A stretch of 64,000 nucleotides of DNA, taken from positions 46,305 to 110,304 of the IMG/VR virus record IMGVR_UViG_3300049811_000081; one strand, given 5' to 3'. Shown piece after piece: positions 28,820 to 56,391 of this stretch; within the stretch, counting starts at the first letter, position 1, and each line of letters begins with the position of its first letter. Origin of the DNA: a virus. The notes under the pieces are model-generated. The model was not told the origin of the DNA and ran no database searches. It saw nothing but the letters and a program-made list of their open reading frames with translations. A program made the position numbers and the translations under genes.

Positions 28820-29020
28820 ATGCAAGAAGATTTAACGAAACTAACGAGTGTAAAAATAATTAGAAAAAATTATTTTGATTTTAAGAAAGCAACTGCCCAT
28901 ACAAATATCACGTTACAAAAATTTGTAAACAGGGCACTGGACTTGTACCTAACAAACACAGAATTTAAGGAAAAAGTGGATGGTCACGAAACAAGTGGAG
29001 TTAAAAACTCAAAATATTGA
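28820..29020 (+). CDS. Small ribbon-helix-helix-like protein heading the glycan cluster
   Basis: KLTSVKI...FKK...TLQKFVNRALDLYL; ATATTTAT at 28795-28802. Confidence 0.6.
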   Translation: MQEDLTKLTSVKIIRKNYFDFKKATAHTNITLQKFVNRALDLYLTNTEFKEKVDGHETSGVKNSKY

Positions 29021-29023
29021 TTA

Positions 29024-30397
29024 ATGAAGAAAAAAATATTGTTATTATGTGACGATCTTAGATTGGTCTCAGGTGTAGCCACAATGGCCAAGGAGATTGT
29101 TTATGGTACCGTTCATAAGTACGATTGGGTTCAACTTGGAGCAGCAATAAAAAACCCAGATTATGGTAAAATAGTTGATTTAAACGAAGAAGTTAGAAAA
29201 GAAACGGGGGTACCTGACGCTAATGTCAAAATAATTCCTAATAACGACTACGGTAACATATTTCTTCTTAGAAATCTCATAAAAGAAGAAAAACCAGACG
29301 CTATATTACACTTTACCGATCCACATTTTTGGGAATGGTTATATAACAACGAAAATGAAATAAGACAACAAATACCTATTTTATTTTATCATGTTTGGGA
29401 TAGTCTACCAAATCCCCAATATAATAGAAACTATTATGAAAGTTGTGATTGGATAGGTTGTATCTCAAGACAAACATATGGTATCGTCAATAACGTTGGA
29501 AAAAGAACGGATTTCAAAACATTTAAACCATTAGAAGATTGGCAAATAGATTATGTTCCACATGGGGTAAATCCAAATGTTTTTAAACCTCTTGAGGAAA
29601 TTAATAAAGACATAAGAAAAACCGTATTTAATGGCAGTGAATTTGATTTCGTTATATTCTACAATAGTAGAAATATCAGAAGAAAACAACCATCGGATAT
29701 CATTTATTCATTTAAGTTGTTTTGTGATCAATTACCCAAAGAACGAGCTGATAGGTGTTTATTATTGATGAGAACCGAATCTGTTGACGAAAACGGTACT
29801 GATTTAGTTAGGGTATCCGAAGATCTGGCACCAAACTGTAAAATACATTTTTTGGATGTTAGAATAAGTCAAAGTGAATTGAATGAACTATATAACATCG
29901 CAGATTGTACCGTGAATATTTCCAATAATGAGGGATTTGGTATTTCAACAATTGAAAGTTTAATGGCTGGAACTCCCATAATTGTTAATGTAACTGGAGG
30001 TCTACAAGACCAATGTGGGTTTAATATTGATGGTAAAGAATTTACCGAAAAAGATTATATCGATATTGGATCATTACATAATAAAGAGAAATGGTCTCAT
30101 ATCGATCATGGTAATTGGTGTATTCCGATTTGGTCGGTTTCACAAACAATTAATGGGTCCCCGATGACCCCATATATCTTTGAAGATAGGATTAATCATG
30201 ATGATGTGTCAGATACATTTATGCAAATGTACCTATTAGGTAGAGATAGACGAAAAAAAATGGGTTTAGAGGGTAGAGATTGGGTGATGAAAAACTTTTC
30301 CTCAAGTGTAATGTGTGAAAAAATGATAAACGGAATTGAGACCGCGTTTAATAAATTCAAAAAGAAAGAAAAATATAGATTATACAAAATCATATGA
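29024..30397 (+). CDS. GT4-like glycosyltransferase
   Basis: SGVATMAK, NSRNIRRKQ, LYNIAD...SNNEGFGISTIESLMAGTPII. Confidence 0.9.
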   Translation: MKKKILLLCDDLRLVSGVATMAKEIVYGTVHKYDWVQLGAAIKNPDYGKIVDLNEEVRKETGVPDANVKIIPNNDYGNIFLLRNLIKEEKPDAILHFTDPHFWEWLYNNENEIRQQIPILFYHVWDSLPNPQYNRNYYESCDWIGCISRQTYGIVNNVGKRTDFKTFKPLEDWQIDYVPHGVNPNVFKPLEEINKDIRKTVFNGSEFDFVIFYNSRNIRRKQPSDIIYSFKLFCDQLPKERADRCLLLMRTESVDENGTDLVRVSEDLAPNCKIHFLDVRISQSELNELYNIADCTVNISNNEGFGISTIESLMAGTPIIVNVTGGLQDQCGFNIDGKEFTEKDYIDIGSLHNKEKWSHIDHGNWCIPIWSVSQTINGSPMTPYIFEDRINHDDVSDTFMQMYLLGRDRRKKMGLEGRDWVMKNFSSSVMCEKMINGIETAFNKFKKKEKYRLYKII

Positions 30398-31644
30398 ATA
30401 GACCATTTTTATTATTTAGAGGACCGGTAGAAAGTGTGTCGGGGTATGGTTCACATTCCAGAGATTTATTGAGAGCATTATATGATATGGATCTATTTCA
30501 TATCAGAGTAGATAGTTCCAATTGGGGGATTACTCCATTAACCGCTTTGGAAGATAATAATCTATTTCATAAATGGATTAAAGATAATATTGTTACGAAT
30601 ATTCAATCCATACCCGACGTTTATGTTCAAGTTACGGTTCCCAACGAATTCAGACCTATTGGAAAGTTTAACATCGGAATAACTGCGGGCATAGAGACAA
30701 CCATAATACCTTTCGATTGGATTGATGGTTGTAATAAAATGGATTTAATTATTACAACATCACAATTTTCGAAAACTGTTTTAAGTGAGACCGTTTATGA
30801 TGAAAAAAATAAAGAAACTAATCAAGTAATAAAACAACATAGGATAATCAAACCCATTGAAGTTTTATTTGAGGGTGCCGACACAAACATATATAATGAC
30901 GTATATAAAAATTTTGATTTGGATATTTCAGAAGATTTTTGCTTTGTTTTCGTCGGTCATTGGTTAAAAGGAAATTTGGGTGAGGATAGGAAAAATATTG
31001 GTTGGTTGATTAAAACTTTTGTGGATACGTTTAAAAATGAACCCAACAAACCCGCACTAATACTTAAAACATCTTCGGGAACATTTTCTGTTATTGACAG
31101 AGAATCGATCAGGGAAAAGATAATGAAATTGATTGCGGGTATTGAGAACCCACCTTCAATATATCTATTATTTGGTGATCTAACAGATGAAGAAATGAAT
31201 AATCTCTATAATCACCCAAAGGTTAAGGCTATGGTTAGTTTCACACGCGGAGAGGGTTTCGGTAGACCTTTATTGGAATTTACAATGACGGGGAAGCCCG
31301 TAATAGCATCAAACTGGTCTGGTCATAAAGATTTTTTAAATGAACATTATTCAGTTCTACTTAGTGGGACATTAACTCCTGTTCATGATAGTGCTGTTGA
31401 TCAATTTATTTTGAAAGATAGTCGTTGGTTTAGTGTTGACTACAAAAACGCGTCGTTTGTTTTGAAACAGGTAAAAGATAACTACGATTTTTTTCTTAAA
31501 AAATCAAATACGTTAATGAACATTAATAAAGTGAAATTCTCCTATACTAAAATGGTGGAAGCATTTAAAGATATTATTACCCCACATTTACCAAACATTT
31601 CAGAAAATAGTTTATTATTACCAGAATTAACAAAAGTTGCATGA
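30394..31644 (+). CDS. GT4-like glycosyltransferase
   Basis: SGYGSHSR, DRKNIG, TRGEGFGRPLLEF...GKPVIASNWSGH. Confidence 0.9.
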   Translation: MNRPFLLFRGPVESVSGYGSHSRDLLRALYDMDLFHIRVDSSNWGITPLTALEDNNLFHKWIKDNIVTNIQSIPDVYVQVTVPNEFRPIGKFNIGITAGIETTIIPFDWIDGCNKMDLIITTSQFSKTVLSETVYDEKNKETNQVIKQHRIIKPIEVLFEGADTNIYNDVYKNFDLDISEDFCFVFVGHWLKGNLGEDRKNIGWLIKTFVDTFKNEPNKPALILKTSSGTFSVIDRESIREKIMKLIAGIENPPSIYLLFGDLTDEEMNNLYNHPKVKAMVSFTRGEGFGRPLLEFTMTGKPVIASNWSGHKDFLNEHYSVLLSGTLTPVHDSAVDQFILKDSRWFSVDYKNASFVLKQVKDNYDFFLKKSNTLMNINKVKFSYTKMVEAFKDIITPHLPNISENSLLLPELTKVA

Positions 31645-32252
31645 TAAATTTAATTTACGGTATTACCGTGTGTGATGAACACGAAGAGATAATTAGATTA
31701 TTAAATCTATTAAAAAATAATACCAAAGATGAGATTGTTGTCCAATACGATTTAACAAAAACCCCACAATCATTGCTTGATGACATAAAAAAATATGATG
31801 TTAAAATCTTTGAACAACCATTTAATGGAGACTTTTCTAAATTTAAGAATGAGTTAAATTTAACTTGTCAAATTCTTGGGGCGGACTATATATTCCAATT
31901 AGATGCTGACGAACTTTTATCAGAAACACTAATTAAAAGTGTAAAGTCAATGGTGTATCGAAATAGTGAGTGTGAATTATTTTACTTACCGAGAATAAAT
32001 ACTGTTCAAGGTATCACCGAAGAACATGTCAAAATGTGGGGATGGTCAATTAATGAAAAAGGTTATATAAACTTCCCCGATAATCAAGGAAGAATATTTC
32101 GTTCCCATTTAAGATGGGGAGGTAAAGTTCATGAAAGTATTGTAGGAATGAAAAACTACATGTTCTTCCCGATAAAGGAAGAATATTGTATCATACATAA
32201 CAAAACAATAGAAAAACAAGAAAAACAAAATACATTATATTCCGGGTTGTAA
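31641..32252 (+). CDS. GT2-like glycosyltransferase
   Basis: DFSKFKN, YIFQLDADE, FPDNQGRI, WGGKVHE. Confidence 0.85.
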   Translation: MINLIYGITVCDEHEEIIRLLNLLKNNTKDEIVVQYDLTKTPQSLLDDIKKYDVKIFEQPFNGDFSKFKNELNLTCQILGADYIFQLDADELLSETLIKSVKSMVYRNSECELFYLPRINTVQGITEEHVKMWGWSINEKGYINFPDNQGRIFRSHLRWGGKVHESIVGMKNYMFFPIKEEYCIIHNKTIEKQEKQNTLYSGL

Positions 32253-32288: not shown

Positions 32289-33260
32289 ATGTCTAAAAGA
32301 GCGTTAATAACGGGAATAAATGGGATGGATGGTTCTCATTTATCAGATTTCTTACTTACAAAAGGATATGAAATTTTTGGCTTAGAAAGAAGAAAGGCTA
32401 ATTATTATTCCCCAAACATAGAACACCTAATTGGTAAAATCACTTTACTAAAAGGTGACTTGTCGGATCAAAATTCACTTTTAAGAGCAATAAAAGATTG
32501 TGAACCACATGAAATATACAATTTGGGTGCTCAATCTTTTGTGGGTGAAAGTTGGCAGATGCCAGAACAGACTTCGGATATTACGGGGTTAGGTGCTTTA
32601 AGAATGCTCGAAGCGATAAGAGAGCATGGTAATAAAGAAATAAAATTTTATCAAGCATCGTCTTCAGAGATGTTTGGTAAAATGACAGGAATAGCAAATG
32701 AAGAGACTTGTTTTTATCCGTGTTCGCCATATGGTGTTGCTAAGCTTTACGCTCATTGGATAACAAAAAACTACCGAGAATCATATGGTATGTTTGCGGT
32801 ATCTGGAATTTTATTCAATCACGAATCTGAAAGGAGAGGACACGAATTTGTCACCAGGAAAATTTCCGATGGGGTTGCGAGAATATATCTTGGATTATCG
32901 GATCATTTAACATTAGGGAATTTAGATCCAATTAGGGATTGGGGTTATGCCCCAGATTATGTCGAAGGTATGTGGTTAATGTTACAACAAGAAACACCTG
33001 ACGATTATGTTTTAAGTACCGCATTATCACATTCTGTTAAAGATTTTTTAACCGAGGCTTTTAATATCATAGGAATTACGGATTGGCAACCATATGTTGT
33101 TCAAGATCCAAAACTAATGAGACCCGTTGAAGTTAATTACTTATTAGGTGATTACTCTAAAGCAAAAAGAGAGTTGGGTTGGGAACCGAAAACATCCTTT
33201 AAAGATTTGGTTAAAATAATGGTCGAAAACGATATAAAACTACTTTCAAAAAATGTCTGA
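32289..33260 (+). CDS. gmd: GDP-mannose 4,6-dehydratase
   Basis: ALITGINGMDGS, YNLGAQSFV, FYQASSSEMFG, SPYGVAKLY, ILFNHES, FVTRKI, RDWG. Confidence 0.96.
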   Translation: MSKRALITGINGMDGSHLSDFLLTKGYEIFGLERRKANYYSPNIEHLIGKITLLKGDLSDQNSLLRAIKDCEPHEIYNLGAQSFVGESWQMPEQTSDITGLGALRMLEAIREHGNKEIKFYQASSSEMFGKMTGIANEETCFYPCSPYGVAKLYAHWITKNYRESYGMFAVSGILFNHESERRGHEFVTRKISDGVARIYLGLSDHLTLGNLDPIRDWGYAPDYVEGMWLMLQQETPDDYVLSTALSHSVKDFLTEAFNIIGITDWQPYVVQDPKLMRPVEVNYLLGDYSKAKRELGWEPKTSFKDLVKIMVENDIKLLSKNV

Positions 33261-34194
33261 TATTTTATTTTTAAATCACAAAAAATCGCAATGTGGAATA
33301 TATGAAATAGGTAATAGAATTTATGAATTAATAGATAAGAACATAATACCTATTGAATATATCGATACGGTTCCAAATAAAGACGGTGTTTATGATTTTG
33401 TTTTCTTTATGGATAAACACAAACCAAAATGTGTTTTTGTGAATTATTTTGTTTTGACGCTTCCATACATAAATAAAAAACTTTTTAAGCAGTTCCCAAA
33501 TACCAAATTTATAGGTATTATACACGATCCATTAAGTCTCCCATATATCCAAATGTATGATAATACATTTGATTATTGGATAATACATGATGAAACTAAT
33601 CAGATATCCAGCAATAAGAAGTTTAACACCATTAGACCAATAAGAAGATTTGAAAAGAAAGAAAATAATAACGGCGTATTAAACATCGGTTCTCACGGGT
33701 TTAGTGTTTCTCCTTGGAAAATGTTTGATAGGATTATTAAAATAATCCATGACGAGTTTAATGAGGTAAACATAAATATGAATATTACCCAAGCAACATT
33801 TGGGGGAACTAACGATAGTGGAAAATTTAATGAATGGAAAAAATTAATTACAAAACCAAATGTAAACTTAAACATTACAAACACGTATTTCGATAAAGAA
33901 ATTGACCTCATATCATTTCTATCTAAAAATGATATGAACATATATTTCTATAATGCTCAACCCCATGTTGGTATTGGTGGTAGCGCGGATCTGGTAATAA
34001 GTGCTCAAACAAGTTTGGTTGTAAATAATACACACATGTATAGACATTTACATGAACATCTCGGGTATTACGAGCAGACAAATTCTTTGCGTTCTTTTTT
34101 GGGTAATCATACTAAAGTAAAAGAACTATATGATATGTGGTCACCTGAGAGATTAACGAATGACTATAAAAAAATTCTTGAATTAATATTATGA
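33253..34194 (+). CDS. Putative GT-B glycosyltransferase, paralogue 1 of 3
   Basis: ILFLN...CGIYEIG, IGSHGF, DMNIYFY, HMYRH shared with the next two ORFs. Confidence 0.6.
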   Translation: MSDILFLNHKKSQCGIYEIGNRIYELIDKNIIPIEYIDTVPNKDGVYDFVFFMDKHKPKCVFVNYFVLTLPYINKKLFKQFPNTKFIGIIHDPLSLPYIQMYDNTFDYWIIHDETNQISSNKKFNTIRPIRRFEKKENNNGVLNIGSHGFSVSPWKMFDRIIKIIHDEFNEVNINMNITQATFGGTNDSGKFNEWKKLITKPNVNLNITNTYFDKEIDLISFLSKNDMNIYFYNAQPHVGIGGSADLVISAQTSLVVNNTHMYRHLHEHLGYYEQTNSLRSFLGNHTKVKELYDMWSPERLTNDYKKILELIL

Positions 34195-35111
34195 AAGATA
34201 TTCTTATTGTTAACAGGTCTAAAACAAATTGCGGTATATACCAATATGGTATAAACATCTTCCAATCATTAAAAAATAGTGATGTAAACAACTATTATCA
34301 CTTTGAGTGTGATAGTCAAAATGAATTTTTTAACTTCATTAAAGAACGTCATTATGATGTGGTTATTTTTAATTGGTATAGACCAATAATGAGTTGGGTG
34401 AACGATAATACCACAACTTATTTATATGATAGAAGAATAAAGACGTACTTTATATATCATGATGGGGATTACCCAACTTTTAAATATACGAAATCAATTT
34501 TATATAATGATCCGACGAAGATTGTAAATTACCTATATGAATTTAATATTGGTAGATGTTTATTTGATTACCCAAATAATGATAAACCGAAGGATAAAGT
34601 AATTATATCTTCTTTTGGGTTTGGCTTTATGGATAAGGGGTTTGATGATGTGATTAAAAGAGTTAATGATGAATTTGAAAACGCCACTATTAGATTACAC
34701 ATGCCAAATGCAAGTGTAGATCCGTCAGGTATACTAAGAAACAAGACAATAGAAAACTGTTATAAGGAATTAAATAATAAAAATGAATTACTGATAACGT
34801 CAGATTATAAAAACACTAATGATTTATTGGATTGGTTAAATGAGAGTACCATTAATTGTTTTTTTTATCATAAAAAACAAAGCAATGGTATTTCTTCTGT
34901 TATTGATTATGCCCTATCTGTTCCTGTTCCCATTGCGGTTACCGAATGTGATATGTTTAGACATATAAAAAATGATGACATTTCAATTGAAAAAAATTCA
35001 TTAAAACAAATAATTGAAAAAGGGTTATCTCCAACAAAAAATTTTAGAGAGAAGTGGTCTAATGAAAATTTTAGGATAAACTTTGATAAAATCATGAATG
35101 AAAATGGATAA
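34191..35111 (+). CDS. Putative GT-B glycosyltransferase, paralogue 2 of 3
   Basis: ILIVN...CGIYQYG, ISSFGFGFMDKGF, GISSVIDYALS, DMFRH. Confidence 0.6.
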   Translation: MKDILIVNRSKTNCGIYQYGINIFQSLKNSDVNNYYHFECDSQNEFFNFIKERHYDVVIFNWYRPIMSWVNDNTTTYLYDRRIKTYFIYHDGDYPTFKYTKSILYNDPTKIVNYLYEFNIGRCLFDYPNNDKPKDKVIISSFGFGFMDKGFDDVIKRVNDEFENATIRLHMPNASVDPSGILRNKTIENCYKELNNKNELLITSDYKNTNDLLDWLNESTINCFFYHKKQSNGISSVIDYALSVPVPIAVTECDMFRHIKNDDISIEKNSLKQIIEKGLSPTKNFREKWSNENFRINFDKIMNENG

Positions 35112-36042
35112 TACCATATTGTTTGTAAATAGATTGAATAAAAATTGTGGGGTTATTGATTATGGTATTAGGTTATTTAATATAGTAAAAAAATCAACAA
35201 ATTTTAATATCGTATACCTACCTGTAGAAAACAGCGAGGACGTTGTTAATGGCATTAAGTTATACCAACCAAACATAGTTATATACAACTATTATCCATC
35301 GGTCTTACCTTTTATTACCGATGATTTGTTGTCCGATTTTAGAAACATTCCTCATGTGGGTATTCTCCACGAAATTGGTTTATATTTTACATCAAATGGT
35401 ATTCTTACTGTTGATAGTACCTATGATGACAGCATAGATGGGATATTTTCATTACCAAGACCATTATTTGAAGACATTGACATTACTGTTGAAAAAAATG
35501 AAATACCAACAATCGGTAGTTTTGGATTTGGTTTTCGGGATAAAAATTTCCCAAAAATTGCTGAGATGGTGTGCAACGAATTTGATATTGCGAAATTAAG
35601 ATTAAACATCCCATTCGCAACTTTTGGTGACCATGATGGGGCATCGGCTAAATATGAAATCGATAAAATAAAAGAAGTGATATCAAAAAATAATAAGAAC
35701 ATAAAATTAGAATACTCACATGATTTTTTAAACCATTCTGACTTATTAAAATTTTTAAAACAAAATGATGTAAATATATTCCTATACGATAAACACGAAA
35801 CGAGAAGTTTAAGTAGTACCATCGACTATGCTTTATCAATAAAAAAACCAATCGGTATTAGTGATAGTCATATGTTTAGACATATAAATTGGGTGACACC
35901 AACAATAATGCTTGACAATACTAATATTAAAGATATTATTAATAATGGTATAGAACCTTTAAATAAGTTATACGAAATACATAGTAATAAGAATTTGATT
36001 GAAAAATTCGAATATTCAATAAATAAATTTTTAAATAGATAA
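35098..36042 (+). CDS. Putative GT-B glycosyltransferase, paralogue 3 of 3
   Basis: ILFVN...CGVIDYG, IGSFGFGFRDKNF, SLSSTIDYALS, HMFRH. Confidence 0.6.
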   Translation: MKMDNTILFVNRLNKNCGVIDYGIRLFNIVKKSTNFNIVYLPVENSEDVVNGIKLYQPNIVIYNYYPSVLPFITDDLLSDFRNIPHVGILHEIGLYFTSNGILTVDSTYDDSIDGIFSLPRPLFEDIDITVEKNEIPTIGSFGFGFRDKNFPKIAEMVCNEFDIAKLRLNIPFATFGDHDGASAKYEIDKIKEVISKNNKNIKLEYSHDFLNHSDLLKFLKQNDVNIFLYDKHETRSLSSTIDYALSIKKPIGISDSHMFRHINWVTPTIMLDNTNIKDIINNGIEPLNKLYEIHSNKNLIEKFEYSINKFLNR

Positions 36043-36043
36043 T

Positions 36044-37276
36044 ATGAAAAAAATAGGTGAAAAATTATTCTCTCTCGGTGAATTATACGTATCTGATTTC
36101 ATAAAACAAGATTCGGATGCAAGAGCTGGTAAACACGACATGACAATGGTTTTAGATGAAAGGTACGGTGCTGCCAGATTAGAAAAATGTACACCAATAC
36201 ATTCTATGTTTGGTAAATATTGGTATCGTAGTGGAACTAATCTAACCATGACAAATGAACTCAAAGGTATCGTTGATAGTGTTAAATCAGTACATAAATT
36301 GAAAGATGGTGATTTATGGTTAGATATTGCTTGTAACGATGGTACTTTACTGAAGTTTGTTCCTGATAATGTCTTAAAATTAGGTATCGATCCCGCCGAA
36401 AATTCTTTTCTTGAAGAATCGTCTAAAGTTGCTGATGAAGTAATACAAGACTATTTCACCATTGATAGTTTTAATCGTTCCAAGTTTAAAGATAAGAAAG
36501 TGTCGGTTGTTACATGTATTGCCATGTTTTACGACTTAGATGAACCAGAAGATTTTTTAATGGACGTATATGATGTATTAGATGATAATGGATTGTTTGT
36601 ACTACAAATGAGTTACACTCCATTAATGATAAAGCAATTAGCTTTCGATAACATTTGTCACGAACACGTATATTATTGGTCTCTGTTTTCTCTTAAGAGA
36701 TTACTAGAAAAATGTAAATTTAAAATTGTTGACTGTCAATTAAATGATGTCAACGGTGGTAGTTTTAGAATTTATATTAAAAAAGACGTATCCAACGTTG
36801 GAACTTTCGGATCTTCCCCATACAGGGATGTTTGTAATGTTAGGGTCGAATCATTATTAACATGGGAATCCAATTTAAAATTGAATGAAAGACATATATG
36901 GGACGATTTTATTAGTAAAGTGAGAGATCTTAGATACCAAGTCACTCATTTCATTAAAGAAGAGAAATCGAAAGGAAAAACGATATGTGGGTACGGTGCT
37001 TCAACAAAAGGAAACACTCTTCTACAATATTTTGATTTGGATAATACTTTAATTGATGCCATAGCTGAAAGATCTCCATATAAATTTGGATTAAAGACTA
37101 TCGGAACAAATATCCCTATCCTATCTGAAGAAGAAGTTAGAAAAATGAAACCAGATTATATGTTGGTTCTACCGTGGCATTTTATTACCGAATTCATTGA
37201 AAGAGAAAAAGAATATTTAGATAATGGGGGAAAATTTATTGTTCCCTGCCCTACTTTTCAAATAATTGAAAAATGA
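36044..37276 (+). CDS. NDP-hexose C-methyltransferase (C3-methyltransferase family)
   Basis: YWYRSG, LDIACNDGTLL, FDNICHEH, NGGSFR, GYGASTKGNTLL, LVLPWHF, GGKFIVP. Confidence 0.88.
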   Translation: MKKIGEKLFSLGELYVSDFIKQDSDARAGKHDMTMVLDERYGAARLEKCTPIHSMFGKYWYRSGTNLTMTNELKGIVDSVKSVHKLKDGDLWLDIACNDGTLLKFVPDNVLKLGIDPAENSFLEESSKVADEVIQDYFTIDSFNRSKFKDKKVSVVTCIAMFYDLDEPEDFLMDVYDVLDDNGLFVLQMSYTPLMIKQLAFDNICHEHVYYWSLFSLKRLLEKCKFKIVDCQLNDVNGGSFRIYIKKDVSNVGTFGSSPYRDVCNVRVESLLTWESNLKLNERHIWDDFISKVRDLRYQVTHFIKEEKSKGKTICGYGASTKGNTLLQYFDLDNTLIDAIAERSPYKFGLKTIGTNIPILSEEEVRKMKPDYMLVLPWHFITEFIEREKEYLDNGGKFIVPCPTFQIIEK

Positions 37277-38061
37277 TAAATGATATAGGTAAAATGGACT
37301 TAGTTATTCAAGGTCCAGCAAATAACTATACGTTAGAAATTGTAAATCTATACCTAAACTTAGATTTTGTAAATAACATAATCATATCATGCTGGGAGGG
37401 GGATAATGTTGATCCAAATATGAATGAAAGGGTGAGGGTTATTTTTAACAAGGATATACCGAACCCCGGAATTACAAATAGAAATAGACAAATTGTTTCA
37501 TCATATAATGGTTTAAAAGAAGTAACCACTAAATTTTCAGCAAAATTAAGATCATGTCAAAAAATAACATTAGAGAGCATGCAATTAATGTATGATTACT
37601 ATAACAAACACAAAGAAAGATCATTAAGTTTTGAAGATGATGTAAATAAACCATTCAATAGGGTATGTGTTGCGGGTATTTTTAAACCATTTCCTTTTCA
37701 CCCAAGAGATCATATCTATTGGGGTAACACTATGGATTTATTGGATGTTTTTGACATACCATTGGATACATATAATGGTGTTGAGGATTATAGTAAAATA
37801 ACAAGATCGGAGGCATACATTTCGTCTTTTTATTATGCAAAATTCAATAAAAAGATAAATCATTTTATTGAAAATTATGAAACATATCTGGTTGATAATG
37901 CACCAAAAATAAATGAAGCCTTTGAGATAAATGATGAGATCATAACAAAAGTGTTTTTACCATTCCCAAAAATCGATTTTGAGTGGCCAAAACACGGATT
38001 GTATAGGTATCATTATGATTTTACGGAAAAACATTTTGGGGAATATTTCGGAAATGAATAG
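37273..38061 (+). CDS. WavE-like polysaccharide synthesis protein (GT-A-like)
   Basis: LVIQGP, IIISCW, NRNRQIVSSYNGL, KLRS, FHPRDHIYWG. Confidence 0.75.
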   Translation: MINDIGKMDLVIQGPANNYTLEIVNLYLNLDFVNNIIISCWEGDNVDPNMNERVRVIFNKDIPNPGITNRNRQIVSSYNGLKEVTTKFSAKLRSCQKITLESMQLMYDYYNKHKERSLSFEDDVNKPFNRVCVAGIFKPFPFHPRDHIYWGNTMDLLDVFDIPLDTYNGVEDYSKITRSEAYISSFYYAKFNKKINHFIENYETYLVDNAPKINEAFEINDEIITKVFLPFPKIDFEWPKHGLYRYHYDFTEKHFGEYFGNE

Positions 38062-38410
38062 AAACATAACGATATTTTGTGACATAGATGGAGTTTTAAT
38101 GAAACATCAATATCCAAACGTAACATGTAGAGAAGATTTTACACCAGAAGAAATCAATGGTGTCTCAGAAAAAATAACAGAATGGGTTACTAAGGGATAT
38201 ATCATTGTTTTAACAACAGCGAGGAAGGAATCGATGAGAAGGGTCACAGAAAAACAATTATCTTCCATTGGTGTGATTTATGATTATTTAATAATGGGGT
38301 TAGGTTCTGGCACTAGATATTTAATTAATGACAATAAATTAGACGGCGAAAAAACGGCGTTTGCTATTACTTTAGATAGAGATAAAGGAATTAAAGATGT
38401 TAACATATAA
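38054..38410 (+). CDS. Capless HAD-family phosphatase
   Basis: IFCDIDGVL, LTTAR, YDYLIMG, YLIND; start at ATG 38054. Confidence 0.82.
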   Translation: MNRNITIFCDIDGVLMKHQYPNVTCREDFTPEEINGVSEKITEWVTKGYIIVLTTARKESMRRVTEKQLSSIGVIYDYLIMGLGSGTRYLINDNKLDGEKTAFAITLDRDKGIKDVNI

Positions 38411-40642: not shown

Positions 40643-41357
40643 AGAACGTTTATTCGAAATAAATAATATTCCCGTTTTAAATTATAAGGTGTTGAATTAT
40701 CTTTTTGAAAATAATTTAGTTCCGCAAGATGATGATTTATGGTTAGAATTTGGGACTTATGATGGAAGAAGTATTAATAAAATATCGAGATATACCGAAA
40801 AAACAATATATGGTTTTGATAGTTTTGAAGGGTTACCAGAACCTTGGGTTGGTAGGATAGACGAAAATGGTGAGTTTCATCATCATAAAGGAGTTTTTGA
40901 TTTAGGTGGTGGTCATGATAATTTTACTTTAGATAGATTTTTTGTCTACCCAAATGTAAAATTAATAAAAGGATGGTTTAAAGATACTTTACCGGTTTTT
41001 ATGGAAGAAAATGATAGACCAATTTCTTTTATTCATGTTGATTGTGACATATATTCATCAACCGTTGATGTTTTTAAATATACACACAAAAATATAAAAA
41101 ATGGGTGTATTATCGTATTTGATGAGATGATTGGTTATCCAAATTTTGAAGAACATGAGTGGAAAGCTTGGTGGGAATTTGTTGAAAATAAAAACATAAC
41201 GTTTGAGTGGATAGGAGGTAATGTTGGTGGTGTTGAAATACCAAATAACATAAATAAAAAATTTGGGGAGGGGACGCCACATTTTCACGAAATGGTTTCT
41301 CCGTCATATGAAAACGTCGGTTTAAAAATTTTACATAATCCAACATATAAATTTTAA
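40629..41357 (+). CDS. TylF/MycF-like O-methyltransferase
   Basis: LEFGTYDGRS, GFDSFEGLPEPW, KGWFKDTL, FIHVDCDIYSST, IVFDE. Confidence 0.88.
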   Translation: MMNHRERLFEINNIPVLNYKVLNYLFENNLVPQDDDLWLEFGTYDGRSINKISRYTEKTIYGFDSFEGLPEPWVGRIDENGEFHHHKGVFDLGGGHDNFTLDRFFVYPNVKLIKGWFKDTLPVFMEENDRPISFIHVDCDIYSSTVDVFKYTHKNIKNGCIIVFDEMIGYPNFEEHEWKAWWEFVENKNITFEWIGGNVGGVEIPNNINKKFGEGTPHFHEMVSPSYENVGLKILHNPTYKF

Positions 41358-41358
41358 A

Positions 41359-49502: not shown

Positions 49503-50240
49503 TCAATAATCATCATTAGATGAGATCCATTGAATAAATCTGACACCACTTGATGGTGAAAGTCTAACAACGATAAATGCTGCACCCCAATCCGCTGATG
49601 TACCAAATGTTGGGTTATACGTTTGATCACCTGACGCCGTAACTAATTTTCTTTGGGATATTATTTCGTTACCGGCGGTTGTGGTACCAACCCCGATTGC
49701 TTGGGCACTGCTCCATGATCCATTTGTTGTATCGGTATCTGCGTTTCTTGTTGTATTTGCTTCTCTACCAACAGCACCAATAATTAAATTACTATTACTA
49801 ACAAATCCCGTGACTGAACCTGTTGTTGACGCACCAGTTGCTGTACCTCCACTAACGTATTCAACTCGTTCACTTATTAATGATGAAGATATTTGCATTA
49901 TCACAAATGACTTTGCTGTTGTTGATATACCGAATGACATCGTGACAGAAGATGTTGATTGTAATCTTCCATTTGATAAATTTGATGTGAAAATTCTAAG
50001 TGTAACACCGGCATTAGCAGTACCGGGATCGTTTAAAACATTTTGTCTACTTGTCCATGTATTACCTAAACTATCTTGTATACTAGTATATGGATCGGCA
50101 CCGTTAGTGCCTGAGTTATCATATGAGACACAAAGAACGGCCATAGCATTTGGTGAAAAATTACCGCCAACCTGAAACGCATATGTTGTTCCTGCGGTAT
50201 TATTTGATCCAGATCCTATACTCGAAGCTACAAATGGCAT
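49503..50240 (-). CDS. Ser/Thr/Gly-rich beta-structured virion (tail-associated) protein
   Basis: SIQDSLGNTWT motif; composition like tail-fibre accessory domains. Confidence 0.6.
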   Translation of the reverse strand: MPFVASSIGSGSNNTAGTTYAFQVGGNFSPNAMAVLCVSYDNSGTNGADPYTSIQDSLGNTWTSRQNVLNDPGTANAGVTLRIFTSNLSNGRLQSTSSVTMSFGISTTAKSFVIMQISSSLISERVEYVSGGTATGASTTGSVTGFVSNSNLIIGAVGREANTTRNADTDTTNGSWSSAQAIGVGTTTAGNEIISQRKLVTASGDQTYNPTFGTSADWGAAFIVVRLSPSSGVRFIQWISSNDDY

Positions 50241-50244
50241 ATTA

Positions 50245-50856
50245 TTATTTTCTTACAAAATCAACCTGAACAGATACTTGGTTTGGAGTTCCCGCCGAAC
50301 CACTTATTATTATTTCTAACGAATCTCCCGCAGCGTATGAAACGTTCTGCACACTATTAAACGCGATCCAGTTGTCTTGTGTTGTTAAACTAAGATTCGA
50401 TCCAGAATGTGTTGCATATCCCGCAGAACCAGATCTTCTAGCATTTACTTCGGCACCAGTACCCCCATCTCTCCATCCATACATTGCAACGACATCACAA
50501 TTAAACGGTGCTCTCCAAACAACATAAAATTGATTATTTGTTATTCCTGCAGTATAATCGGCAATTGTTCCACCTTTAGAAAATCTATTTACTGTTGAAA
50601 TAAGTGCTCCAGTTACTAACGTTTCTCCAGAAATTCTAACCCTACCCTCAGATAAAACGTCCAATATTCTTACACTTCCTGTTTGAACCGTTAAAATAGA
50701 CCCCACAATTGAATCTGATACGCTAATTAACCCACCTAAACTACCTGTAATTTCCATTATTGCAGACCCACTACCAATAACACGTAAATCCACACCAGCA
50801 TCGGATGAACTAACAATTAAACTTCCTGTAGTACTCGTTCTTTGTAAATTAGCCAT
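50245..50856 (-). CDS. Probable tail-associated structural protein
   Basis: Repeated TGS/SGS beta motifs shared with the fibre N-terminus; C-terminal YAAGDSLEI; ATATTTAT 8 nt upstream. Confidence 0.6.
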   Translation of the reverse strand: MANLQRTSTTGSLIVSSSDAGVDLRVIGSGSAIMEITGSLGGLISVSDSIVGSILTVQTGSVRILDVLSEGRVRISGETLVTGALISTVNRFSKGGTIADYTAGITNNQFYVVWRAPFNCDVVAMYGWRDGGTGAEVNARRSGSAGYATHSGSNLSLTTQDNWIAFNSVQNVSYAAGDSLEIIISGSAGTPNQVSVQVDFVRK

Positions 50857-50882: not shown

Positions 50883-52184
50883 TTATTCAACAACAACATC
50901 AATAAAATAAGAAGATTCATTAAAAGTGTCAGTAGGATATACAACAGAATTAGAATACGTATATCTACCATTACCGGCATAACCTGTATTACTTTGTGGC
51001 GCAGTAATTATACCGTTGGCAATAGATGATGTGAAATAATCAGGTGCCAAACAATATTCCGCCCTATTAGCAAGAATAAATGGCATCAATACCGAAACAA
51101 CATATGTGGTATTTGCACTTATTGATACCGAAGATGTTAATTCCATTCTTTGCCAACCGCTTGTTGTTTCACCAGTAAAGGTAATTTGGGCCAATCTAAC
51201 ACTACCCGAATCTGTCCATAAAGCACCTATATGTGTATTACCATCCATTTGTGAATCTTTATAAAATCTGATTGCTTTTACAACACAATTTTGACTTGTT
51301 CTAAATACTGTACCTAGATTAACACCTGTACCCGAACCGTCCTCTTCAAATGCATATGGTGGAGTGGCATTACCAAATATTGTATATTCTGAAGGTGTTG
51401 GGGTGGGTGTTGGAGTTGGTGTCGGGGTAGGTGTTGGGGTAGGTTGTGCGAACGCCTCTTTTACCTCCAAAATTATTGTTCCGTGATATTGATCTGTAGG
51501 TGCGGAAAGACCCATTGTATATGTTGTTCCTGAAGTTGTACCCGACTTATAATAATTATAAATAGTATTTTTAGTTGTATAAAAACTATAAGAGGTCTCT
51601 GTTATTGGGGTGCTGCGATAAACTCTGGATGAACCATCTCGTGGAAACCAGTCATTTGTCACCGCAACAAAAATACTATCATTTTTTGTTGATGTAATAT
51701 CTACACTTGGAGCTTCTTGGGCACTTTTACTAACAAAAGATCCAGTTGTTGCATTACTAAATGCATATACCGCCATTGTTAATGTTCCATCATCTGTTGG
51801 CATATCGAGAGAACATGTTATTGTCATAGTTCCACCATTGGTAAAATTACCTAACCACATTGTTGTGTATGGTCTTGATTCAACAAATATTCTACCTTTT
51901 TCATTGAGCGAAAAACTTGGGATTGTGGTAAAATTTGGTGGTACAAATGAAAACCCATAAGCATCTGATGCGTCATTATTACTAACTGTTACAACAATTA
52001 GTGAATCTGCATCCAAAGATGTGAGTTGTAAACTGCAAGTAGGGCTGGTGGAACCAATCGACTGTGTTGATCTTACCGCATAAGATGTTAGTCCAAAATT
52101 TTGAAATCCTTGACTTAAAATTTGAGTACCTATCAATGTAAAACCATTAATTTGGGTCGATCCATTAATTACTACCGCAGCCAT
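50883..52184 (-). CDS. Tail-associated protein: beta domain + (PT)n linker + C-terminal DUF4082
   Basis: PTPTPTPTPTPTPTPTP linker; GVNLGTVF...AIRFYK...HIGALW...ETTSGWQ...ISANTTYVVS...YFIDVV. Confidence 0.78.
   Translation of the reverse strand: MAAVVINGSTQINGFTLIGTQILSQGFQNFGLTSYAVRSTQSIGSTSPTCSLQLTSLDADSLIVVTVSNNDASDAYGFSFVPPNFTTIPSFSLNEKGRIFVESRPYTTMWLGNFTNGGTMTITCSLDMPTDDGTLTMAVYAFSNATTGSFVSKSAQEAPSVDITSTKNDSIFVAVTNDWFPRDGSSRVYRSTPITETSYSFYTTKNTIYNYYKSGTTSGTTYTMGLSAPTDQYHGTIILEVKEAFAQPTPTPTPTPTPTPTPTPSEYTIFGNATPPYAFEEDGSGTGVNLGTVFRTSQNCVVKAIRFYKDSQMDGNTHIGALWTDSGSVRLAQITFTGETTSGWQRMELTSSVSISANTTYVVSVLMPFILANRAEYCLAPDYFTSSIANGIITAPQSNTGYAGNGRYTYSNSVVYPTDTFNESSYFIDVVVE
51393..51443 (-). repeat. 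Pro-Thr dipeptide linker repeat
   Basis: About 8 PT units with synonymous variation. Confidence 0.9.
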
Positions 52185-55100
52185 TAAATCTTTCTTTTAT
52201 TTTATTAATTTCTTCTTTTAGTTCTTGAATTGATTTAATTAATATCGATACCATTTTTGTATATGATATCGATTCTGGATTACCATCTCTATCAATTTTA
52301 ACCAAATCAGGATAAATTTTGTATAGTTCCTCCGCAATCAATCCGTATTCTAAACCATTACCCATTGATGAGTCTATCCATTTAAATGTAACAGGGTTTA
52401 ACATCATCACCGTATCTAATTGATTTTCCAATGGGTTAATATCCATTTTAAATCTTTTTGTTGAGGTTTCCGTTAGTGATGTTGCCACTAATGATCCCGT
52501 CAATTGAACCGTATTTGTTCCTTTGATAAATGTTAAATTATTTGATCCGCTAAACGCGCCTCCATCATTAAATTGAATGGTTGTTGTCGCACCTCCAGGT
52601 GAACCACTACCACCCGTTGCACTAATAGATGCTGTTCCACTAGTTACAGTTGCGGTAATATTTGTTGTAAAATTTAAATGTGTTGCAGTTCCTTGTGATA
52701 CACCATCATCCAATATTGTTAATTCACCTCCCACACCACTTGTTCCTGATGTTCCACTAGAACCTCCAGGTCCACTTGTTCCTGATGATCCCGATGATCC
52801 ACTTGTTCCAGATGATCCTGATGAACCGCTTGTACCAGAAGAACCTGACGATCCTGAACTACCGGAAGAACCCGATGACCCTGAACTACCAGATGAACCA
52901 CTTGTACCAGAAGATCCTGAACTACCGGAAGTTCCACTAGTTCCCGATGTTCCTCTTGTACCGGATGAACCACTACTACCAGAAGAACCTGAAGATCCGC
53001 TAGATCCAGAACTACCTGATGAACCACTTGTACCAGAAGTTCCGGAACTACCTGATGAACCACTTGTACCAGAAGATCCTGAACTACCAGATGATCCTGA
53101 TGATCCACTACTACCAGAACTACCAGATGAACCACTAGTACCAGAACTACCCGAAGATCCTGAACTACCAGATGATCCTGATGAACCAGAAGTTCCGGAA
53201 CTACCTGATGAACCAGAAGTTCCGGAACTACCTGATGAACCAGAAGTTCCAGATGATCCACTACTACCAGAACTACCTGATGAACCAGAAGTTCCGGAAC
53301 TACCTGATGAACCAGAACTACCAGATGATCCACTACTACCAGAACTACCAGATGATCCACTACTACCAGAAGTTCCACTACTTCCGGAAGATCCTGATGA
53401 ACCAGAACTGCCGGAAGTTCCACTTGTTCCAGATGTACCTCCGGTTCCAGAAGAACCACTACTACCAGATGATCCACTTGAACCGCTACTACCAGATGAT
53501 CCCGAACTTCCAGAAGTTCCGGATGATCCTGAACTACCAGATGAACCACTTGTACCAGAACTACCCGAAGAACCTGAACTTCCAGACGAACCACTTGTTC
53601 CTGATGTACCAGAACTACCCGCTTGACCCGCAGCTCCTTCTAAATTTGTTGTCCACGAAGCATATGTTCCAGACCCAAATATTGAGGTTACCTCAACAGT
53701 TAATTCACCCGTTGTTGGATTGTATGAAACAATGTCACCAGTAAATGAATTATTTACATCATATGCAATTAAAACTCCTTGAGCAATAGTATATGAAAGT
53801 TGTGTTGTGGCTGTTAGTGTTACATTATTACCAATTACTAATGAATTTAAATTTATTGAGGTGTTTGATGTTCCATTATATACTGGTGATAATCCTGATG
53901 TTCCGCTGGTACCTGATGTACCTCTTGTTCCAGATGATCCTGAACTGCCAGATGAACCACTACTACCTGACGATCCCGAACTACCAGACGATCCGCTTGT
54001 TCCTGACGATCCGCTTGTTCCTGACGAACCACTACTACCAGAAGATCCTGAACTACCAGACGATCCGCTTGTTCCTGACGATCCTGATGTACCACTTGTA
54101 CCAGAAGATCCTGAACTACCAGACGATCCTGATGTACCACTTGTACCAGAAGATCCTGAACTACCAGACGATCCACTACTACCTGATGAACCACCGGTAC
54201 CCGAACTACCAGATGATCCACTCGTACCGGAGGAACCCGACGAACCAGAACTTCCTGATGAACCACTAGTACCAGATGTTCCATTAATTCCGCTCGTACC
54301 AGAACTACCGGAAGAACCACTACCTCCCGATGCACCCTCTAGGTTAACCTCCCAATAACAAAATGTATTAGTGCCACCTATTGTACTTACTTCAACAACA
54401 AAGGCACCTGTGTTTTCATCATATGAGACAATATCACCGGTAAAATAATCATTCACGGAATTTGCAACCAAGATATGTTGCGCAAGTGTATATGAAAGAC
54501 CTGTTGTACCAGTAAAGGATGTATTTAAACCAATTGTTAATCCGCTTAATGTTAAACATGTATCGGATATTCCATCATACTTTGGGGATATACCAGAAGA
54601 TCCGCTTGTTCCTGATGTTCCGCTAGAACCTCCAGGTCCACTTGTTCCTGATGAACCAGAAGATCCGCTAGTACCGGAAGAACCTGACGAACCACTACTA
54701 CCAGAAGATCCACTACTTCCCGAACTACCAGATGATCCCGATGATCCACTTGTACCAGAACTACCAGATGATCCACTTGTACCAGAAGTTCCCCTTGTTC
54801 CTGACGATCCAGAACTTCCTGATGATCCACTTGTCCCTGACGAACCTGAGCTACCAGAAGATCCTGATGATCCACTTGTACCAGAAGAACCACTTGAACC
54901 AGAACTACCTGATGATCCACTTGTACCAGAAGTTCCTCTTGTTCCTGACGATCCAGAACTTCCTGATGAACCACTACTACCTGATGAACCACTTGTGCCA
55001 GAAGTTCCCCTTGTTCCGGATGATCCTGAACTACCAGATGATCCCGATGATCCACTTGTACCAGAACTACCAGATGAACCACTACTACCAGATGAACCAC

Positions 55101-56391
55101 TTGTACCAGAAGATCCTGAACTACCAGACGATCCACCACTACCTGATGAACCAGAAGTTCCTGATGTTCCTCTAGTTCCCGATGATCCTGAACTACCAGA
55201 AGATCCTGATGAACCACTACTTCCAGACGATCCAGAACTTCCAGAAGAACCACTTGTACCAGAAGTTCCTCTTGTTCCTGATGAACCACTTGTCCCTGAC
55301 GAACCTGAGCTACCAGAAGAGCCGGAAGATCCTGATGAACCGCTTGTACCAGAAGTTCCTCTTGTTCCTGACGATCCAGAACTTCCTGATGAACCACTTG
55401 TACCAGAACTACCAGATGATCCACTTGTACCGGATGTTCCTCTTGTACCCGAAGAACCACTACTACCAGATGAACCACTACTACCAGATGAACCCGATGA
55501 ACCACTACTTCCAGAAGAACCACTTGTACCAGAAGTTCCTCTTGTTCCTGATGATCCAGAACTACCAGATGAACCACTTGTACCAGAACTACCAGATGAA
55601 CCACTTGTACCAGAACTACCAGATGATCCTGAACTACCAGAAGATCCTGATGAACCACTTGTTCCGCTCGTACCGGAAGAACCAAATGCAATTAACCACG
55701 AGTTTCCATCGTATCTATATACCGAATCGGTTATTCTATCGTAATGGAGTTGCCCCTCTTCAATACCAACAGGTAACCCATTTCCTTTGGGTAAAACAAA
55801 CGAACCCGATATCTTAACGGAACCAGTGAACCTATGGGTATCATCCATAGTATTACCAAAAATGTGAGAACCCGATGCAAAGGATTGTGTTACAATTAAA
55901 ACCGAACTACTAACAATATATTGTCTTGCGGTAACGTCTCCTGTTACGGTTAGAGAACCCAAAATTTTGGTGTCGGTATTTACTACAAAACCATTTGTTG
56001 GTGATATTGATGCGGACGCACTTCCGCTCGATATCATCGATAAATTAAGACCTGTAACCCCACTTGCTGGAATATTATATAATCTAGATCCGTCTCCAAT
56101 AAATAAACCACTTACAGTAGATCCCGCAATCTCAACACTACCACTAACAATAAATGAACCCGTTACTTGAACGTTGTTGGTTGTTGCAACAAATGACCCC
56201 GTTCTAACCCATACGTCATCTGGTGTTATACCAGACAATATTGCGTCACAAATAGCAATTCCACCACAATAAACTTCTTCCGCATGTATTGAGGTTAGTT
56301 GTGTATCAAAGCTTCCGATATTAACAGTATATCCAGAAGGGATATTTTCTGTGTTAATTTGCGTCCAATTAATTTTCTGAAGACCACCCAT
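52165..56391 (-). CDS. 1408-aa tail fibre-like protein with Gly-Ser/Thr-Ser repeats and C-terminal peptidase S74 intramolecular chaperone
   Basis: Three G-X-Y repeat blocks; C-terminal TSTKRFKMDINPL...LNPVTFKW...YGLIAEEL...SISYTKMVSILIKSIQEL. Confidence 0.88.
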   Translation of the reverse strand: MGGLQKINWTQINTENIPSGYTVNIGSFDTQLTSIHAEEVYCGGIAICDAILSGITPDDVWVRTGSFVATTNNVQVTGSFIVSGSVEIAGSTVSGLFIGDGSRLYNIPASGVTGLNLSMISSGSASASISPTNGFVVNTDTKILGSLTVTGDVTARQYIVSSSVLIVTQSFASGSHIFGNTMDDTHRFTGSVKISGSFVLPKGNGLPVGIEEGQLHYDRITDSVYRYDGNSWLIAFGSSGTSGTSGSSGSSGSSGSSGSSGTSGSSGSSGTSGSSGSSGSSGTRGTSGTSGSSGSSGSSGSSGSSGSSGSSGSSGTRGTSGTSGSSGSSGTSGSSGSSGSSGTRGTSGTSGSSGSSGSSGSSGSSGTSGSSGTRGTSGTSGSSGSSGSSGSSGSSGSSGSSGSSGTRGTSGTSGSSGSGGSSGSSGSSGTSGSSGSSGSSGSSGTSGSSGSSGSSGSSGTRGTSGTSGSSGSSGSSGSSGSSGTRGTSGTSGSSGSSGSSGSSGTSGSSGSSGSSGSSGTSGSSGSSGSSGTRGTSGTSGSSGSSGTSGSSGSSGSSGSSGSSGSSGSSGSSGTSGSSGSSGTSGPGGSSGTSGTSGSSGISPKYDGISDTCLTLSGLTIGLNTSFTGTTGLSYTLAQHILVANSVNDYFTGDIVSYDENTGAFVVEVSTIGGTNTFCYWEVNLEGASGGSGSSGSSGTSGINGTSGTSGSSGSSGSSGSSGTSGSSGSSGTGGSSGSSGSSGSSGSSGTSGTSGSSGSSGSSGTSGTSGSSGTSGSSGSSGSSGSSGSSGTSGSSGTSGSSGSSGSSGSSGSSGSSGSSGTRGTSGTSGTSGLSPVYNGTSNTSINLNSLVIGNNVTLTATTQLSYTIAQGVLIAYDVNNSFTGDIVSYNPTTGELTVEVTSIFGSGTYASWTTNLEGAAGQAGSSGTSGTSGSSGSSGSSGSSGTSGSSGSSGSSGTSGSSGSSGSSGSSGSSGSSGSSGTGGTSGTSGTSGSSGSSGSSGSSGTSGSSGSSGSSGSSGSSGSSGSSGSSGTSGSSGSSGSSGSSGTSGSSGSSGTSGSSGSSGTSGSSGSSGSSGSSGSSGTSGSSGSSGSSGSSGSSGSSGSSGTSGSSGSSGTSGTSGSSGSSGSSGSSGSSGSSGSSGTRGTSGTSGTSGSSGSSGTSGSSGSSGSSGSSGSSGSSGSSGTSGSSGSSGTSGSSGSSGTSGPGGSSGTSGTSGVGGELTILDDGVSQGTATHLNFTTNITATVTSGTASISATGGSGSPGGATTTIQFNDGGAFSGSNNLTFIKGTNTVQLTGSLVATSLTETSTKRFKMDINPLENQLDTVMMLNPVTFKWIDSSMGNGLEYGLIAEELYKIYPDLVKIDRDGNPESISYTKMVSILIKSIQELKEEINKIKERFNGCGSN
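52738..53625 (-). repeat. Coding repeat block 3, (G-S/T-S)n, ~98 triplets
   Basis: Ends in GTSGPGGSSGTSGTSG, as block 1 does. Confidence 0.95.
53893..54327 (-). repeat. Coding repeat block 2, (G-S/T-S)n, ~48 triplets
   Basis: Lies between two homologous ~85-aa globular spacers. Confidence 0.95.
54592..55683 (-). repeat. Coding 9-nt-period repeat block 1, (G-S/T-S)n, ~120 triplets
   Basis: Gly every third residue; eight GTRGTSGTS punctuations by manual count. Confidence 0.95.

Follow-up and report, generated by a model that had tools for sequence, protein, structure and literature searches.

A candidate phage-encoded protein O-glycosylation system that pairs a TibC/Aah-type enzyme with a collagen-like fibre

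What do the sugar genes on this DNA act on? The window, which here means the whole 64-kb stretch that was analysed, is the last part of the 110,304-bp IMG/VR virus record IMGVR_UViG_3300049811_000081 (CheckV completeness 33%). Between positions 29024 and 56391 it holds a sugar and fibre region of two convergent blocks, plus-strand 29024-44605 and minus-strand 44585-56391, in which a homologue of TibC, which glycosylates adhesins in E. coli, is encoded near a collagen-like fibre. An earlier note on this DNA had proposed that the TibC homologue primes the serines of the fibre and that the other enzymes extend and methyl-cap the glycan, and its interpretation is partly supported by our analysis. 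The region probably encodes a cytoplasmic protein O-glycosylation system of the phage, with the phage's own collagen-like fibre as the acceptor. Our check of the open reading frames (ORFs) returned the positions and the two-block layout that the note had described. The two convergent genes at the junction, for a family 2 glycosyltransferase (GT2) and the TibC-like protein, share 21 bp at their 3' ends (44585-44605), which leaves no space for a terminator between the blocks.

The 717-residue TibC-like protein contains a GT-A-fold domain (residues 1-240), a beta-sandwich (246-345) and a TibC/Aah-type GT9 domain (349-711) with a Cys4 iron finger. Residues 393-711 align with TibC (PDB 4RAP, E = 2.8e-53), and the motif CHGCW...WCP...FECS falls opposite the four cysteines of TibC, as expected of an Aah/TibC homologue with an intact iron finger. 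The suggested profile search against the bacterial autotransporter heptosyltransferase (BAHT) family gave 276.9 bits on TIGR04414, the NCBI equivalog model for Aah/TibC, against a cut-off of 200, with residues 349-711 covering model positions 6-374 of 374. An AlphaFold2 model (pLDDT 79.8) matched the 4RAP chains in Foldseek with E = 7e-31 and template-modelling (TM) scores of 0.80-0.82 by target over 380-390 columns, and is predicted to adopt the GT-B/GT9 fold with the N-terminal barrel of TibC. The enzyme is a true relative of TibC. Its N-terminal 240 residues show the fold of a GT-A/nucleotide-diphospho-sugar transferase (VIA Z 13-15), and Glu126-x-Asp128 is invariant. In a complete 335-kb relative an additional TibC-like domain (L047:4356-5450) lies upstream of the gene for a GT4...FkbM fusion protein and shares 51% identity with residues 353-712; therefore, some relatives hold two such enzymes per module.

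BAHT enzymes transfer heptose from ADP-heptose and form a dodecameric ring via a beta-hairpin thumb and Phe368. In TibC, Asp110 is catalytic, Thr226, Lys230 and Trp305 contact the donor, and Arg286 reaches the adenine N1 and accounts for ADP-sugar specificity (PMC4358343). The equivalents of the first four residues (Asp442, Thr556, Lys560 and Trp631) are invariant in 13 phage homologues, as are Phe693, which corresponds to TibC Phe368, and the predicted iron-finger residues Cys666, Cys669, Cys683 and Cys695, which correspond to TibC Cys339, Cys342, Cys358 and Cys370. The thumb residues Phe265/Val266 of TibC are matched by a conserved and still hydrophobic pair, Tyr/Phe592-Met593. The adenine-contacting Arg286 is replaced by Ile612 here and by Ile, Val or Leu in 13/13 phage enzymes, the closest invariant basic residue being Lys614, in a pairwise HMMER alignment whose register may be a few residues off; the donor nucleotide may therefore differ from that of TibC. 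The position that governs stereoselectivity (Pro300 in TibC, Ser294 in Aah) is a Ser in the phage enzyme, as in Aah.

The proposed acceptor is a fibre with an N-terminal domain (residues 1-236), three blocks of G-S/T-S repeats separated by two related globular inserts of ~85 residues, and a C-terminal S74 intramolecular chaperone. The repeats comprise 274 in-register Gly-X-Y triplets (180 GSS, 70 GTS and 10 GTR) in runs of 122, 50 and 102 (residues 237-602, 686-835 and 919-1224), and Gly is uninterrupted at every third residue. We counted 500 Ser, 157 Thr and 16 Pro in the 1408 residues. The imino-acid (Pro/Hyp) stabilisation of collagen (PF01391) is lacking, with only two GPG triplets within the repeats. 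At the DNA level the match between repeats is a degenerate 60-85%, with periods in multiples of 9; therefore, their regularity is maintained at the protein level. The S74 domain (PF13884) spans residues 1310-1365, and the C-terminal end of the fibre has matches in more than 20 tail-fibre families of PHROG. The N-terminal 235 residues have no PHROG match; this domain has homology to the fibres whose genes follow directly after the enzyme gene in relatives.

The pairing of the enzyme with such fibres, whose absence the earlier note had named as a refutation, was examined in both directions and was borne out. A profile of the 717-residue protein found 456 viral contigs, from which 80 loci were fetched and grouped into 40 clusters at 90% identity. 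In 31/40 clusters the strand of the enzyme also had, at a distance of up to 10 kb, a collagen ORF with Gly-(Ser/Thr)-(Ser/Thr) triplets, G[ST][ST]; it started 32-72 bp past the stop codon of the enzyme in 25 of these 31, and lay 3.6-7.7 kb upstream of the enzyme, as in the window, in the other 6. Seven of the 9 negative clusters are truncated contigs and two, L007 and L051, have full flanks. The relatives show the gene order GT4...FkbM, small gene, enzyme, fibre, facing a convergent series of GT2, a homologue of the gene at 31641, GT4b and GT4a. The window keeps the same convergent frame; its fibre gene and three private Ser/Thr-rich genes lie upstream of GT4...FkbM, and ~11 kb has been inserted.

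For the reverse test we took an arbitrary sample of viral records with seven consecutive codon triplets of the type Gly-(Ser/Thr)-(Ser/Thr) and searched them for a TibC-like domain. The domain was present in 22/72 of these records and in 6/9 of those at least 90% complete; of the 22, 13 (genomes of 66-548 kb) had enzyme and repeat no more than 10 kb apart. In contrast, the control set of records with (G-P-X)x6 repeats, comparable in total DNA, contained the enzyme in 0/72 (0/12 among complete records), a difference with a Fisher p of 7e-8.

The partnership extends to distant phages and to bacteria. In the cultured Microcystis phage Mel-JY01 (PP395634) a GTS/GSS/GTR fibre lies 1.7 kb upstream of a 1226-residue protein that combines GT4, GT-A and TibC-like parts, and the motif GTRGTSG is common to this fibre and that of the window. 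Because the functions are fused in a single protein there, the two adjacent genes of the window (GT4...FkbM and TibC-like) are tied together. The Mel-JY01 fibre is a 1016-residue open frame (L001:2-3052, plus strand) that runs off the start of the record, and its gene probably continues across the record's ends; GenBank annotates only a 533-bp coding sequence (2519-3052), and an opposite-strand ORF (739-2298) covers most of the rest. In the 735-kb megaphage LR756501, a collagen-like gene lies 3.6 kb from the enzyme homologue. Among bacteria, the closest homologues (Methylococcaceae, Polaromonas and Binatia, with 41-48% identity) adjoin small G[ST][ST] proteins, and the remoter ones (Burkholderiaceae, Selenomonadales and Acetobacteraceae) have no such neighbour. 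A quick maximum-likelihood tree contained a branch, supported by an SH-aLRT of 99%, that separated 42/42 repeat-adjacent enzymes from 21 bacterial enzymes lacking such neighbours. The enzyme-fibre half of the priming proposal is thus upheld by the co-occurrence in both directions, the Gly-Pro-X control and the bacteria; the priming reaction itself we infer. In six loci from Methylococcaceae and related bacteria (L209, L216, L222, L226, L228 and L246), the TibC-like genes lie ~50-250 bp from genes for 230-340-residue proteins with 9-34 G[ST][ST] triplets, and these chromosomal pairs of methanotrophs look like a counterpart in bacteria to the pairing seen in phages.

The constant partner of the TibC-like gene is the adjacent gene for the GT4...FkbM protein, present in 79/80 related loci with a median identity of 58%. 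This protein had been described as a GT4/GT-A/FkbM fusion, and its GT4 and FkbM domains were confirmed. The middle domain was not borne out as GT-A: one Atlas structure neighbour (TM 0.61) points to that fold, and hhalign comparison with the GT-A profile of the enzyme gave no significant match for this domain, the three GT-B-like paralogues of the plus-strand block or the WavE-like protein; therefore, GT-A is a hint here. Homologues of GT4a, GT4b and the gene at 31641 stand beside the module in relatives, with order and orientation kept and 55-62% identity, and a GT2 homologue occupies the same convergent position in 29/80 loci. The positions of all genes of the region are collected in Table 1.

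Between the 31641 gene and GT2, inside this conserved glycosyltransferase block, sits a cassette of ~11 kb (32289..43517, Gmd to the GT9-like gene). It is almost absent from the 80 related loci; single pieces occur in L040 (the C-methyltransferase) and L051 (the nucleotidyltransferase and the 41359 gene), where they adjoin the module at the same place as here. From its position we infer that it is a glycan-diversifying cassette. The proposal that other enzymes extend and cap the fibre glycan accordingly divides: of the plus-strand genes only GT4a, GT4b, the gene at 31641 and GT2 are found again next to the module in relatives, and the cassette is nearly confined to this phage, with a putative role in fibre modification. 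As claimed before, family matches identify Gmd, three methyltransferases (3-C-methyltransferase, TylF and FkbM), the fusion of a phosphoribulokinase (PRK)-like kinase with a class II aldolase, and NTP_transferase. The previous count of about nine further glycosyltransferases is firm for four (two GT4, WavE and GT2, by Pfam); the three GT-B-like paralogues are assigned by structure neighbours, and 31641-32252 and 42780-43517 are weak. Sequence searches against solved structures found nothing significant for 34191-35111, 31641-32252, 41359-41805 and 37979-38410. Altogether the region encodes at least 13 candidate transferase domains, 5 methyltransferase domains and two nucleotide-sugar routes, with ~20 further sugar genes by the enzyme. 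Among the loci compared this window has the largest accessory toolkit, together with a rearranged gene order.

The three genes between fibre and enzymes had been called Ser/Thr-rich tail proteins. They are indeed Ser/Thr-rich (22-28%); the tail assignment was not supported, as they show no tail homology and are private to this phage, with counterparts in 0/80 related loci. PHROG and the cultured phages yielded no match to them, and Pfam only DUF4082. In the 433-residue protein a perfect (Thr-Pro)8 linker, of a kind typical of O-glycosylation, precedes the DUF4082 domain, and this protein is possibly a second acceptor or a partner of the fibre.

Table 1. Genes of the sugar and fibre region, in window positions.
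Position	Strand	Feature	Evidence
29024-30397	+	GT4a	Pfam Glycos_transf_1
30394-31644	+	GT4b	Pfam Glycos_transf_1
31641-32252	+	203-aa conserved protein, possibly GT-A (weak)	phrog_37334, cited for the 29024..32252 block
32289-33260	+	Gmd	family match
33253-36042	+	three paralogous GT-B-like proteins	structure neighbours only, TM 0.75-0.83
36044-37276	+	NDP-sugar 3-C-methyltransferase	4RV9, E 3e-38
37273-38061	+	WavE-like protein	Pfam
37979-38410	+	candidate HAD phosphatase (weak)	
38397-39812	+	PRK-like kinase/class II aldolase fusion	kinase half against phosphoribulokinases, E 1e-38
39722-40642	+	sugar-1-phosphate nucleotidyltransferase (NTP_transferase)	family match
40629-41357	+	TylF O-methyltransferase	family match
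41359-41805	+	protein without assigned function	
41775-42446	+	FkbM O-methyltransferase	family match
42433-42783	+	protein without assigned function	
42780-43517	+	GT9-like protein (weak)	
43514..44605	+	GT2 glycosyltransferase; shares 21 bp at its 3' end with the convergent TibC-like gene	Pfam Glycos_transf_2, E 3e-10
44585..46738	-	717-aa two-enzyme protein, proposed priming enzyme	TibC (4RAP), E 2.8e-53; TIGR04414, 276.9 bits
46748..49474	-	908-aa fusion: GT4 (~1-380), middle domain, FkbM methyltransferase (731-889)	Pfam, NCBIfam and PHROG matches
49503..50240	-	245-aa protein, 28% Ser/Thr	without family match
50245..50856	-	203-aa protein, 22% Ser/Thr	without family match
50883..52184	-	433-aa protein, 27% Ser/Thr, (TP)8 linker, C-terminal DUF4082	Pfam DUF4082, E 5e-33
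52165..56391	-	collagen-like fibre, 1408 aa, proposed glycan acceptor	Pfam Collagen, E 2.8e-103 in 10 stretches; Peptidase_S74, E 2e-12

A cluster of this kind might instead remodel the host surface (lipopolysaccharide (LPS), capsule or S-layer glycan), for instance to block superinfection, with the linkage to the fibre being incidental. This is the published reading of sugar clusters in jumbo phages (PMC7824862), and the WavE-like and GT9-like genes have LPS-core relatives. Searches with Bac_transf (PF02397), Glycos_transf_4 (PF00953) and Wzx (PF01943), whose positive controls worked, found none of these families in the contig or in two 100%-complete relatives, in agreement with the earlier observation that a flippase and an undecaprenyl-phosphate initiating transferase are missing; the contig is only 33% complete, and export genes could be elsewhere. 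However, 0/24 proteins have a membrane helix candidate (no 19-residue window exceeded 1.6 on the Kyte-Doolittle scale), and the missing export genes fit a cytoplasmic acceptor, as had been argued. The key enzyme, moreover, belongs to a protein-modifying family, and remodelling of the host surface leaves the two-way association with Ser/Thr collagen and the negative Gly-Pro-X control unexplained; we consider it quite unlikely. A role in DNA, with some or all of the glycosyltransferases hypermodifying the bases of the phage with glycans, seems very improbable to us, although multi-glycosyltransferase clusters of phages can make DNA glycans, heptose included (bioRxiv 10.1101/2023.12.21.572611). 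DNA methyltransferases do flank the sugar region, but they are of the N6/N4 type and not C5. A search of the contig, run without a working positive control, gave no Tet/JBP match, and the sole thymidylate-synthase homologue, 34 kb away, scores 320 bits on the thymidylate synthase model (cut-off 327), like an ordinary ThyA. Nothing ties DNA modification to collagen repeats.

It is also conceivable, and in our judgement unlikely, that the TibC-like enzyme acts on other proteins (the three Ser/Thr-rich neighbours, another virion protein or a host protein) and leaves the fibre unmodified. The three neighbours, one with its (TP)8 linker, do stand between the fibre and the enzymes, and L031 and L051 have non-collagen Ser/Thr-rich neighbours instead; in L051 a protein with 28% Ser/Thr is encoded just downstream. 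However, the collagen gene is the constant neighbour, the bacterial pairs contain only small G[ST][ST] proteins, and the three private proteins are absent in relatives and therefore cannot account for a partnership conserved there.

Modification of the phage's own fibre is the reading that we prefer, and it stands on observed features: the domains that were identified, catalytic residues that are conserved, enzyme and fibre genes that stay together in phages as in bacteria, and missing export machinery. Several points weigh against it. Glycosylation of the fibre is a prediction from the genes, and the place of the fibre on the virion one from its S74 domain. The known substrates of TibC and Aah are beta-helical autotransporter repeats and not collagen-like chains. 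The fibre of the window lies 5.4 kb from the enzyme, with the three other Ser/Thr-rich genes between them, and in L007 and L051 no G[ST][ST] gene lies within 10 kb. Most of the 80 forward loci come from one broad phage lineage, so their synteny is partly inherited. The three GT-B-like paralogues lie near clusters of PF11440 (T4 AGT, a DNA alpha-glucosyltransferase), by language-model features only. Finally, the apparent loss of Arg286 and the absence of GmhA from eight complete genomes argue for caution about heptose as the sugar.

GmhA was absent from this contig and from the 8 complete genomes of phages that have both the enzyme and such a fibre; for the HldE kinase domain, complete genomes of such phages gave weak, non-specific matches of PfkB type far below the cut-off. 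Heptose as the first sugar would still be favoured by the family membership of the enzyme, by the WavE-like and GT9-like genes with their heptose-related LPS relatives, and by the Aah-like Ser.

Gene content is the basis for the proposed acceptor, step order, sugars and position of the fibre on the virion, and the pathway could run as follows. Fibre chains of (Gly-Ser/Thr-Ser)n, each with ~250 such triplets, would be made in the cytoplasm, where the TibC/Aah-type domain would move the first sugar from a nucleotide sugar to the serine hydroxyls, with Asp442 as the catalytic base. The fused GT-A domain, the GT4...FkbM protein and the convergent GT4a, GT4b and GT2 would then extend and O-methylate the glycan. 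3-C-methyltransferases of the type found here act on NDP-4-keto-6-deoxy sugars. By established enzymology, Gmd and this enzyme would together give a 3-C-methyl sugar, and the ~11-kb cassette would supply a GDP-linked 6-deoxy-3-C-methyl-hexose; its kinase/nucleotidyltransferase set would supply a second activated sugar, and it would add further transferases. The S74 chaperone would finally nucleate trimerisation to give a glycan-covered fibre of ~235 nm, a length calculated from the triplet count. Adhesion, protease shielding or drag, as put forward in the earlier note, would be candidate functions of such a coat.

A further idea is offered tentatively, as possible rather than probable. Serine O-glycans might take the place of hydroxyproline, so that a proline-free "glyco-collagen" triple helix would fold or persist only if it is hyper-glycosylated. 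The product would be a bottle-brush fibre of ~235 nm with up to ~500 sites per chain and ~1500 per trimer, and swaps of the cassette would diversify the glycan between phages (here branched 3-C-methyl deoxy-sugars and methyl caps). The collagen-associated TibC-like clade, spread over giant phages, cyanophages and methanotrophs, would then represent a new glycoprotein class.

The source of the window is a phage, as marked by the encoded RtcB, DNA methyltransferases, M23 peptidase and LAGLIDADG endonuclease. The G+C content is ~30%. Viral contigs with relatives of the 717-residue enzyme measure 270-340 kb, and the window is therefore a jumbo-phage fragment. With megablast, 25 kb of the window gave no match to cultured phages; the sole host clue from relatives is that two contigs with the full fusion sit in metagenome-assembled genome bins of Bacteroidota. 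Just before the plus-strand block (26453-28531) lie a DUF192 gene, a LAGLIDADG homing-endonuclease-like gene (26827-27648) and an N6/N4 DNA methyltransferase gene (27830-28531). Glutaredoxin and thioredoxin genes (56482-57059, minus strand) immediately precede the fibre gene, which has the same orientation; beyond them are an AAA ATPase (57077-58228), an antiterminator-like gene (58493-59020) and a Dam-type N6-adenine methyltransferase (59043-59921). An RtcB RNA ligase (8259-9611, phrog_1075, E = 1e-80) and a 491-residue protein with an M23-type metallo-endopeptidase domain (19326-20801), both on the minus strand, are ordinary phage accessory genes unconnected with the glycosylation finding.

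If fibre glycosylation is correct, hundreds of large environmental phages (66-735 kb, including a cultured Microcystis phage) would use cytoplasmic machinery of their own to produce collagen-like fibres that are heavily glycosylated, and the annotation of such sugar clusters, now read as host-surface or DNA modification, would change. The module would also offer a compact genetic system for placing defined glycans on a simple Gly-Ser-Ser tag and a test case for glycan stabilisation of proline-free collagen, and it would bear on phage adsorption, persistence in water, and grazing or immune recognition. Mel-JY01 is a cultured system in which fibre glycosylation could be tested. In the open-access papers and preprints we found no description of phage TibC-like enzymes or of glycosylated Ser-collagen fibres. 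To our knowledge, TibC/Aah enzymes are known only from autotransporter adhesins, and virion glycosylation in phages is known experimentally only from mycobacteriophages.

The closest known enzymes are those of the E. coli pairs TibC-TibA and Aah-AIDA-I (BAHT, TIGR04414; PDB 4RAP/4RB4), to which the phage catalytic domain is homologous above the equivalog cut-off. They share the catalytic Asp, the Thr/Lys/Trp donor contacts, the Cys4 iron finger and the hydrophobic thumb/Phe368 contacts. The phage system is further likened to them by a cytoplasmic enzyme whose gene lies beside that of a repeat-rich substrate; in E. coli many serines are hyper-modified. In contrast to TibC, the phage enzyme has an extra N-terminus of ~345 residues (GT-A and beta-sandwich) and Ile/Val/Leu in place of Arg286. 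Whereas the BAHT genes adjoin an autotransporter passenger, none is present in the window, where the neighbour is a collagen-like G-S/T-S fibre and ~20 further sugar genes stand alongside.

The nearest published phage case is that of the mycobacteriophages, which encode glycosyltransferases for structural proteins of their own virions (Freeman et al. 2023, Cell Host Microbe, as cited in PMC12619734). These reportedly act in the cytoplasm, as the proposed system of the window would; the mycobacteriophages use one or two glycosyltransferases on the C-terminal tails of capsid or tail-tube subunits, whereas the window has a BAHT-type enzyme, a far larger toolkit and a collagen-like fibre.

Outside the phages, the likeness lies in the fibre and its sugars. 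The exosporium nap protein BclA of Bacillus anthracis and the fibrils of Mimivirus have Gly-X-Thr/Ser collagen repeats with O-linked oligosaccharides, unusual methylated or deoxy sugars, dedicated clusters and a hair-like layer. They rely on other transferase families with no BAHT member, and the BclA repeats are proline-rich (GPT), unlike the fibre of the window with its 16 Pro. The chlorovirus PBCV-1 is a eukaryotic virus with N-linked capsid glycans, no BAHT enzyme and no collagen acceptor. Its glycans are assembled in the cytoplasm independently of the host, and its A064R glycosyltransferase/methyltransferase fusion and its own Gmd resemble the fused glycosyltransferase-methyltransferase proteins and the virus-encoded Gmd of the window.

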